Positions 53,488 to 53,811 of a stretch of 64,000 nt of DNA are shown in pieces; position 1 is the first letter of the stretch, and each line of letters begins with the position of its first letter. The notes beneath the pieces were generated by a model, which saw nothing but the letters and a program-made list of their open reading frames with translations, searched no databases and had not been told where the DNA came from. This DNA is from a virus. Its lineage: Duplodnaviria > Caudoviricetes. The stretch is from positions 1 to 64,000 of IMG/VR virus record IMGVR_UViG_3300046710_000151. One strand, 5' to 3'. A program made the translations under genes and the position numbers.

Positions 53488-53811
53488 ATGGACAATCAAA
53501 CGACTACTGCATTAAACGATCTGGCACCGCAAGCGGTCGCTGAGATCAAGAACTATTTTCAATCGACGGTGGACAGCGAGGACAGCGCCTACAAACGTGC
53601 CGACCTCGGGCTCAAGGTCTTGGGGCGGGTCAACGGCAACGATTCCAACCGAATCAAAGTGCTGGCACTCCAATTCCAGGTGGCCCGCATGATGGGCGTC
53701 AAGGGAGATATGCTGCGTCCGCTGTTGGCGGAACTGAATCCGGCTCTTGCGACTGCCGGGGTAATTGCTGCTCCTCAACCCGTTGTTGGGGCTTTGTCTC
53801 CAGCGGCATAG
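53488..53811 (+). CDS. 107-aa helical protein between the effector and the array
   Basis: Starts 5 nt after the effector stop with an AAGGA RBS; its stop lies in the first repeat. Confidence 0.75.
   Translation: MDNQTTTALNDLAPQAVAEIKNYFQSTVDSEDSAYKRADLGLKVLGRVNGNDSNRIKVLALQFQVARMMGVKGDMLRPLLAELNPALATAGVIAAPQPVVGALSPAA

Follow-up and report, generated by a model that had tools for sequence, protein, structure and literature searches.

What does a small phage protein do when its gene is wedged between a nuclease-dead Cas12f-like effector and a CRISPR-like repeat array? The window that we analysed, the first 64 kb of a 76.6-kb IMG/VR virus record, holds such an arrangement. An earlier note on this DNA had proposed that the small protein is a dedicated partner of the effector and may give it its output, whether repression, activation, recruitment or crRNA processing, possibly through the basic C-terminal helix of the effector. 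The proposal touches on a current subject. Dead relatives of Cas12f and TnpB have recently been shown to serve as natural RNA-guided transcription factors, one of them only together with a partner sigma-E. The features of the locus are given in Table 1.

Table 1. Features of the effector, small-gene and array locus, in positions of the window.
Feature	Position	Strand	Basis or remark
Nuclease-dead Cas12f-like effector, 431 aa as called	52187..53482	+	AF2/Foldseek; profile alignment
Shine-Dalgarno AAGGA of the small gene	53475..53479	+	Inside the last effector codons; read from sequence
Small (putative partner) gene, 107 aa	53488..53811	+	Homologues; codon-position signal; AF2 model; synteny
Conserved helical core, residues 1-~86	53488-53745	+	Homologue alignment
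Variable tail, residues ~87-107	53746-53808	+	Sequence and length vary among homologues
Array of 11 repeats (~35 nt) with unique spacers (~20-30 nt)	53801..54460	+	Repeat 1 overlaps the small-gene stop

The tight packing that the earlier note described is borne out. The effector ends with TAA at 53480-53482, and after 5 nt (AGAAT) follows the ATG of the small gene at 53488, which is served by a good ribosome-binding site, with 8 nt between AAGGA and the start codon. At the other end, the alignment of the complete ~35-nt repeat unit starts at 53801 (65-76% identity, family D4), so that the TAG stop codon (53809-53811) indeed falls inside the first repeat, in its degenerate 5' part. A promoter and terminator scan of 51800-54900 gave nothing above chance.

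Such a short ORF invites the question of whether it encodes a protein at all. Across eight close homologues of the small gene, differences at codon positions 1, 2 and 3 numbered 910, 574 and 1433, and 802 of the 1839 differing codons (44%) were synonymous. Because the homologues differ mostly at third positions, the ORF must be a real coding gene, and this codon pattern shows it to be under purifying selection. Together with the broad conservation at the protein level, the same pattern rules out that the ORF is a mere leader or a tracrRNA region. An internal repeat-like sequence, GCGGAACTGAATCC, which encodes the motif LLAELNP, was considered as a functional repeat and rejected, since its bases vary synonymously (GAA/GAG, CTG/TTG) and the motif is missing in distant members.

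The protein belongs to a sizeable family. A word search yielded six proteins with ~60% identity to it, and a 19-member profile run against 1.84 billion representatives returned 115 matches at E <= 1e-3, 62 of them at E <= 1e-10. Two long matches that might have been fusions, P0116 and P0138, turned out to be eukaryotic WIYLD and BRCA2 repeat proteins and were discarded as false positives. The 113 real representative clusters are all 66-175 aa long; hence, across these members, the small protein is never fused to another domain.

As the earlier note had read from the letters, the protein is helical and belongs to no recognised family. Searches of Pfam, PHROGs, NCBIfam, PADLOC and a PDB sequence profile gave no match, and the AF2 model is all-alpha (mean pLDDT 81.5), its helices H3-25 and H32-68 forming a long helical hairpin that is followed by two short helices, H73-83 and H85-89. 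Comparisons of the model returned generic shapes. Foldseek retrieved only generic helical bundles (best E 2.9 in PDB and 0.67 in BFVD), the best VIA-align score (Z 6.9) was tied among many unrelated helical proteins, and two ESM Atlas look-ups gave nothing usable, again generic helical bundles only. Among 112 family members, none matched a helix-turn-helix (HTH) or other DNA- or RNA-binding family in Pfam or PHROGs; the model consists of long helices rather than a compact HTH, although the family may contain a divergent one. The pI spans 5 to 10 across the family with no conserved net charge, so that the surface gives no clue to a particular target. The Ala/Pro-rich tail reads into the repeat and is modelled at a pLDDT of ~55. 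Given this low model confidence, and the variable sequence and length of the tail, the overlap of gene and repeat is probably incidental.

The product of the upstream gene has a Cas12f fold. Among the top Foldseek matches of its AF2 model (pLDDT 79.5) were AsCas12f (8j12_A, E 4e-17) and dCas12f (9n9c_A, E 3.6e-13), and the effector-family profile matched AsCas12f with E 1e-5, while sequence libraries gave weak TnpB matches only. In the profile alignment, the effector family has LGP at RuvC-I where AsCas12f has GIDLG, and VVGL at RuvC-II where AsCas12f has QMEDL; the Asp and the Glu are thus lost. The family stops ~40 residues after the RuvC-II site, in one long basic helix, and possesses neither the zinc finger nor RuvC-III. 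With both residues missing and the protein ending before these two elements, "dead effector" is a fair description.

The conserved effector core begins near 52313 (VRQRVLAIKL). Two stretches in the ~42 codons called ahead of it (52187-52312), TCCTTCC and CTTCAG, are the complements of the two halves of the repeat core, and the AF2 confidence over this N-terminal part stays below 50. Several effector homologues start only at the RVLAVKL motif, and the others share only short islands (AES, RGxLQ and PHTA) between variable insertions. The segment may be RNA rather than protein, which would fit a tracrRNA-like element. Another resemblance to the repeat core, GGAACTGAACG at 53351-53361 with one mismatch, lies inside the 3' coding region of the effector (VGTERSV), where the conserved TERAVK motif probably produces it by chance.

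Within the array, conservation is limited to the 3'-terminal 15 nt of the repeat (GGAAGGAACTGAAGG). This core occurs in 11 copies on the plus strand between 53820 and 54435, where ~1.2 matches to its 11-nt centre would be expected by chance. No spacer matched the phage's own 76.6-kb genome beyond chance or any of the fetched related loci; likewise, spacer 4 had no match in a genome-contig collection and spacer 2 none in a viral-contig collection. Past the window, the same virus record carries an unrelated ~44-nt tandem repeat of about five copies (69528-69761), which contains AGCTACCTCACCTCGGGGACGCGGGGA and lacks the array core.

Arrays of related loci come in two forms. Mini-arrays with a period of ~30-40 nt were seen in L003, L005, L008, L009, L010, L011, L028 and L031; their units, up to ~24 in number, consist of a 15-16-nt core such as GAGAGGAACTGAAGG and spacers of ~17-22 nt, and they occur ahead of the effector, in the space between the two genes and behind the small gene. 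L011 has one array upstream of the effector on the opposite strand, and L003 carries solitary repeat copies at 2694, 2910, 3638 and 4302. Ordinary arrays with a period of 71-72 nt were seen in L012, L014, L016/17, L018, L021 and L029.

How firmly the small gene is tied to the effector was assessed from both sides. On the effector side, viral and metagenomic loci were fetched from a 25-cluster effector family, with effectors of the related loci 31-62% identical to that of the window. At each of the 15 distinct effector loci whose sequence extends far enough, a small-family member follows the effector in the same orientation; L007 and L013 break off too soon to be counted. By tblastn, the small gene was found in the window, L003, L006, L008, L009, L010, L011 and L018, and weakly in L019 (E 3e-5), and a profile HMM detected it in L019, L012, L014 and L016/17 (E <= 1e-4). 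At the remaining three loci (L020, L015 and L005) the HMM match was borderline, the sequences aligning clearly and the position being the same.

On the small-protein side, ten representatives were sampled across the E-value range. Six of them (P0049, P0067, P0079, P0103, P0115 and P0140, at loci L021, L027, L028, L029, L031 and L032) are encoded directly behind an effector, that of P0079 being frameshifted. At P0142 (L033), only the last ~100 effector residues (profile positions 308-407) precede the small gene, and P0137, P0153 and P0147 have neither effector nor array nearby. In addition, P0004 and an effector homologue, P0024, are encoded on one JGI contig, again 5 nt apart.

The two genes are joined in position as well as in occurrence. 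Of 22 loci, 15 have the start of the small gene within -20 to +15 nt of the effector stop, and in five of these the genes overlap by 4 nt. At the other seven, the two genes are separated by 174-741 nt that consist of mini-array DNA alone, which places the small gene within the array transcript. Pairwise identities of effectors and small proteins from 16 loci are strongly correlated (Mantel r = 0.80, with none of 5000 permutations as high), the small protein evolving faster, at 16-28% identity where effectors retain 32-45%. These comparisons show that the small gene is part of the effector's operon, usually translationally coupled to it, and that the two are co-inherited as a module. The small gene thus very probably belongs to a dead-Cas12f RNA-guided system.

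What surrounds the pair is not shared. Within 6 kb on either side of it in the window, no further ORF has homologues at the other loci; the neighbours are a DUF2303/phrog_210 gene (50074-50985, E 3e-52) and a ParB-like phrog_1033 gene (54846-55799, E 7e-21), whereas at the other loci RecT, YqaJ, ERF, DnaA_C, the pol III beta clamp or terminase are found. As the surrounding genes change from locus to locus, pair and array form a cassette that is kept together, and the comparison of loci shows the module moving as a unit between unrelated phage backbones. Gene-neighbourhood co-occurrence, which the earlier note had named as a way to check its claim, thus turned out in favour of that claim: the pair is maintained in ~20 otherwise unrelated phage contexts, usually coupled and co-diverging.

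Two of the modules are decaying. At L028:2847-3988 the effector is split over three frames, and the small gene and an 18-unit mini-array still follow; at L033:3681-3995 the effector remnant stands before an intact small gene, without an array. A conventional TnpB with Pfam matches to OrfB_IS605 and Cas12f1-like_TNB lies at L029/L030:8013-8360 (minus strand), on one phage contig with a module of dead effector, small gene and array and ~3.6 kb downstream of it.

Co-divergence would likewise be expected if the small protein were a regulator or brake, one that inhibits or times the effector in the manner of an anti-CRISPR or an antitoxin, or that controls the expression or maturation of the array transcript. 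Small phage proteins beside CRISPR parts are often anti-CRISPRs (Acr) or their regulators (Aca), and the location of the small gene between two mini-arrays, inside the array transcript, at seven loci would suit such a role. However, the 4-nt overlaps and gaps of 1-15 nt suggest co-production in equal amounts rather than separate control, and the pI is not conserved. Nor did any of the 112 small-family members match a DNA- or RNA-binding family or the HTH DNA-binding domain that Aca regulators carry, although such a domain may be present in divergent form. We consider a regulator or brake distinctly unlikely.

The effector-free representatives belong together. In a tree of 113 rows, six (P0137, P0134/P0153, P0146, P0147 and P0149) form a sister clade without an effector that is well separated (SH-aLRT 99) and truly homologous to the main family (hhalign probability 97.7%, E 1.4e-12). 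Neither effector nor array was present in any of the three sister-clade contexts examined (L023, L024-26 and L034), all of them in phages; the stand-alone gene of L024 lies ~1 kb upstream of the large terminase. Since this clade does without effector and array, the small-protein fold can function alone, which argues that it has an activity of its own that was recruited by the dead-Cas12f lineage. The small family probably descends from a stand-alone phage protein that survives as the sister clade.

Effector-free homologues in phage early regions, such as those of L024, L023 and L034, might also mean that the small protein is an unrelated passenger, an ordinary small phage early protein that became locked beside the effector in a mobile cassette. 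Such a passenger would have to keep its place beside effectors that retain as little as 31% identity and whose other neighbours have all been exchanged, and its adjacency would have to outlast the insertion of arrays between the two genes. Furthermore, in the sampled main clade (8 of 107 rows), seven representatives are found behind an effector and one behind an effector remnant. A mere passenger is therefore very improbable. Occurrence of homologues apart from the effector, which the earlier note had named as grounds against a dedicated partner, is confined to the margin of the family, in one distant sister clade; the dedication itself is supported by genomic context, that is by co-occurrence, coupling and co-divergence.

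What, then, would a dedicated partner do? It might be a structural subunit, an obligatory part of the effector complex that serves guide loading or R-loop formation instead of downstream output, and that replaces the contribution of the second Cas12f protomer or the lost C-terminal domains. Translational coupling and strict co-inheritance fit this idea, as do the truncation of the effector right after the RuvC-II strand and the pairing of the last ~100 effector residues with the small gene at L033. The top VIA-align row, a helical segment of the Cas12c2 REC lobe (Z 6.9), would point the same way, but its tie with unrelated helical proteins puts the similarity at noise level. To our knowledge, solved Cas12f and dCas12f complexes need no additional protein, and the fold works in the stand-alone clade, where there is no effector. 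A structural subunit is thus a reasonable candidate, albeit an unlikely one.

On balance, we lean towards the small protein being the second protein of a phage-borne, two-gene, RNA-guided DNA-binding module, in which it would act as an adaptor or cofactor that couples binding to an effect on transcription. The module would comprise the nuclease-dead Cas12f-like effector, the ~100-aa helical protein and a multi-guide array. Made in roughly equal amounts with the effector, the small protein would most likely be bound to the effector-guide complex and, as a protein-protein adaptor or cofactor, would link guide-directed DNA binding to transcription. It might do so by contacting a host factor, such as RNA polymerase, or by making the bound complex more stable. 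We favour an adaptor or cofactor because signatures of catalysis, of an HTH or of nucleic-acid binding are lacking from the family, as is a conserved charge.

Several points temper this preference. Tight linkage and co-divergence are also expected for a regulator, an inhibitor or any gene in a mobile cassette, the stand-alone sister clade is truly homologous, and the helical-hairpin fold matches nothing informative. A complex prediction for effector and small protein, with alignments as input, one effector copy and no RNA or DNA, gave a score of 0.01, a value that says nothing on binding in either direction. As for a possible contact through the basic C-terminal helix of the effector, the sole hint comes from L033, which keeps just the last ~100 effector residues before the small gene.

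A more specific form of the adaptor reading is that the small protein is a new output adaptor with two binding partners, dead Cas12f with its guide and either host RNA polymerase or some other transcription factor. This we regard as quite doubtful. If it were true, a phage multi-guide array could switch chosen genes of the host or of rival elements on or off without a sigma factor. RNA-guided control of transcription through a partner protein would then have been invented twice, independently, the second time from a stand-alone phage regulator.

The module is carried by uncultured phages from peat, soil and groundwater. Neither protein had a tblastn match among the GenBank phages (50,697 records), and a pattern-based scan of a 185,579-species genome collection with the effector profile revealed no relative. 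Sequencing runs with the locus were two peat-metagenome DNA runs, no RNA run being listed.

Among known systems, the nearest precedent is that of Bacteroidota (Hoffmann et al., Nature 2026, PMC13472631). There dCas12f depends on a sigma-E that is encoded in its operon, co-evolves with it and touches it through an additional C-terminal domain; the identities of the two partners are correlated with R2 = 0.78 (PMC13472631). In both cases, a C-terminally truncated, nuclease-dead Cas12f-fold protein shares an operon with a dedicated co-evolving partner (Mantel r = 0.80 here). In contrast to sigma-E, the small phage protein has neither sigma-2 nor sigma-4 and, at ~100 aa, is a helical hairpin or bundle. 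Neither Sigma70 nor any other Pfam/NCBIfam family matched P0001, and none in Pfam matched the 112 family members. Whereas dCas12f-sigma-E uses a single chimeric gRNA, the window has 11 repeat-spacer units and its relatives up to ~24, and the carriers are uncultured phages rather than Bacteroidota.

A second parallel is offered by RuvC-impaired type V effectors that silence by binding, namely V-C, V-M and the predicted V-O/V-P (PMC12669027); a CRISPR-linked dCas12f cluster without sigma-E has also been mentioned (PMC13472631). Like V-M Cas12m, V-C Cas12c and the CRISPR-linked dCas12f, the present system combines a RuvC-impaired Cas12 with a CRISPR-like array and is without adaptation genes: a general family scan, not specific to cas1 or cas2, found no Cas-family match among the eight neighbouring ORFs (50074-55799). 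Binding-only type V systems are expected to bind DNA and block transcription, and the same would be expected here. However, they make do with a single effector, whereas here a second gene is conserved at every locus with enough sequence; PMC13472631 and PMC12669027 describe no conserved small accessory protein for V-M, V-C or CRISPR-linked dCas12f. The repeats differ as well, conserving only their 3' 15 nt and shrinking in relatives to mini-arrays with a period of ~33 nt.

The TldR proteins, TnpB-like nuclease-dead repressors that are RNA-guided (bioRxiv 10.1101/2023.11.30.569447, PMC13622181), provide a third. With these, the present effector shares its nature as a miniature dead protein of the TnpB/Cas12 family, sometimes phage-encoded, and would share RNA-guided control of transcription. 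Unlike TldR, which has one omega-RNA-like guide at the 3' end of its gene and neither array nor partner, the phage system has both an array and a partner gene.

In conclusion, the system is of a known kind, and its own dedicated accessory family appears to be new, as literature searches found no description of a small helical partner family and it is absent from Pfam, PHROGs and NCBIfam. Genomic context supports a lineage of dead Cas12f that is carried by phages, uses arrays and has an accessory protein family dedicated to it. If effector and small protein cooperate, they would add a new accessory protein family to type V-like systems and could reveal a new way from guide-directed DNA binding to a cellular effect during infection. 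An effector of ~390-430 aa and a cofactor of ~100 aa would make a very compact two-part module able to carry many guides.
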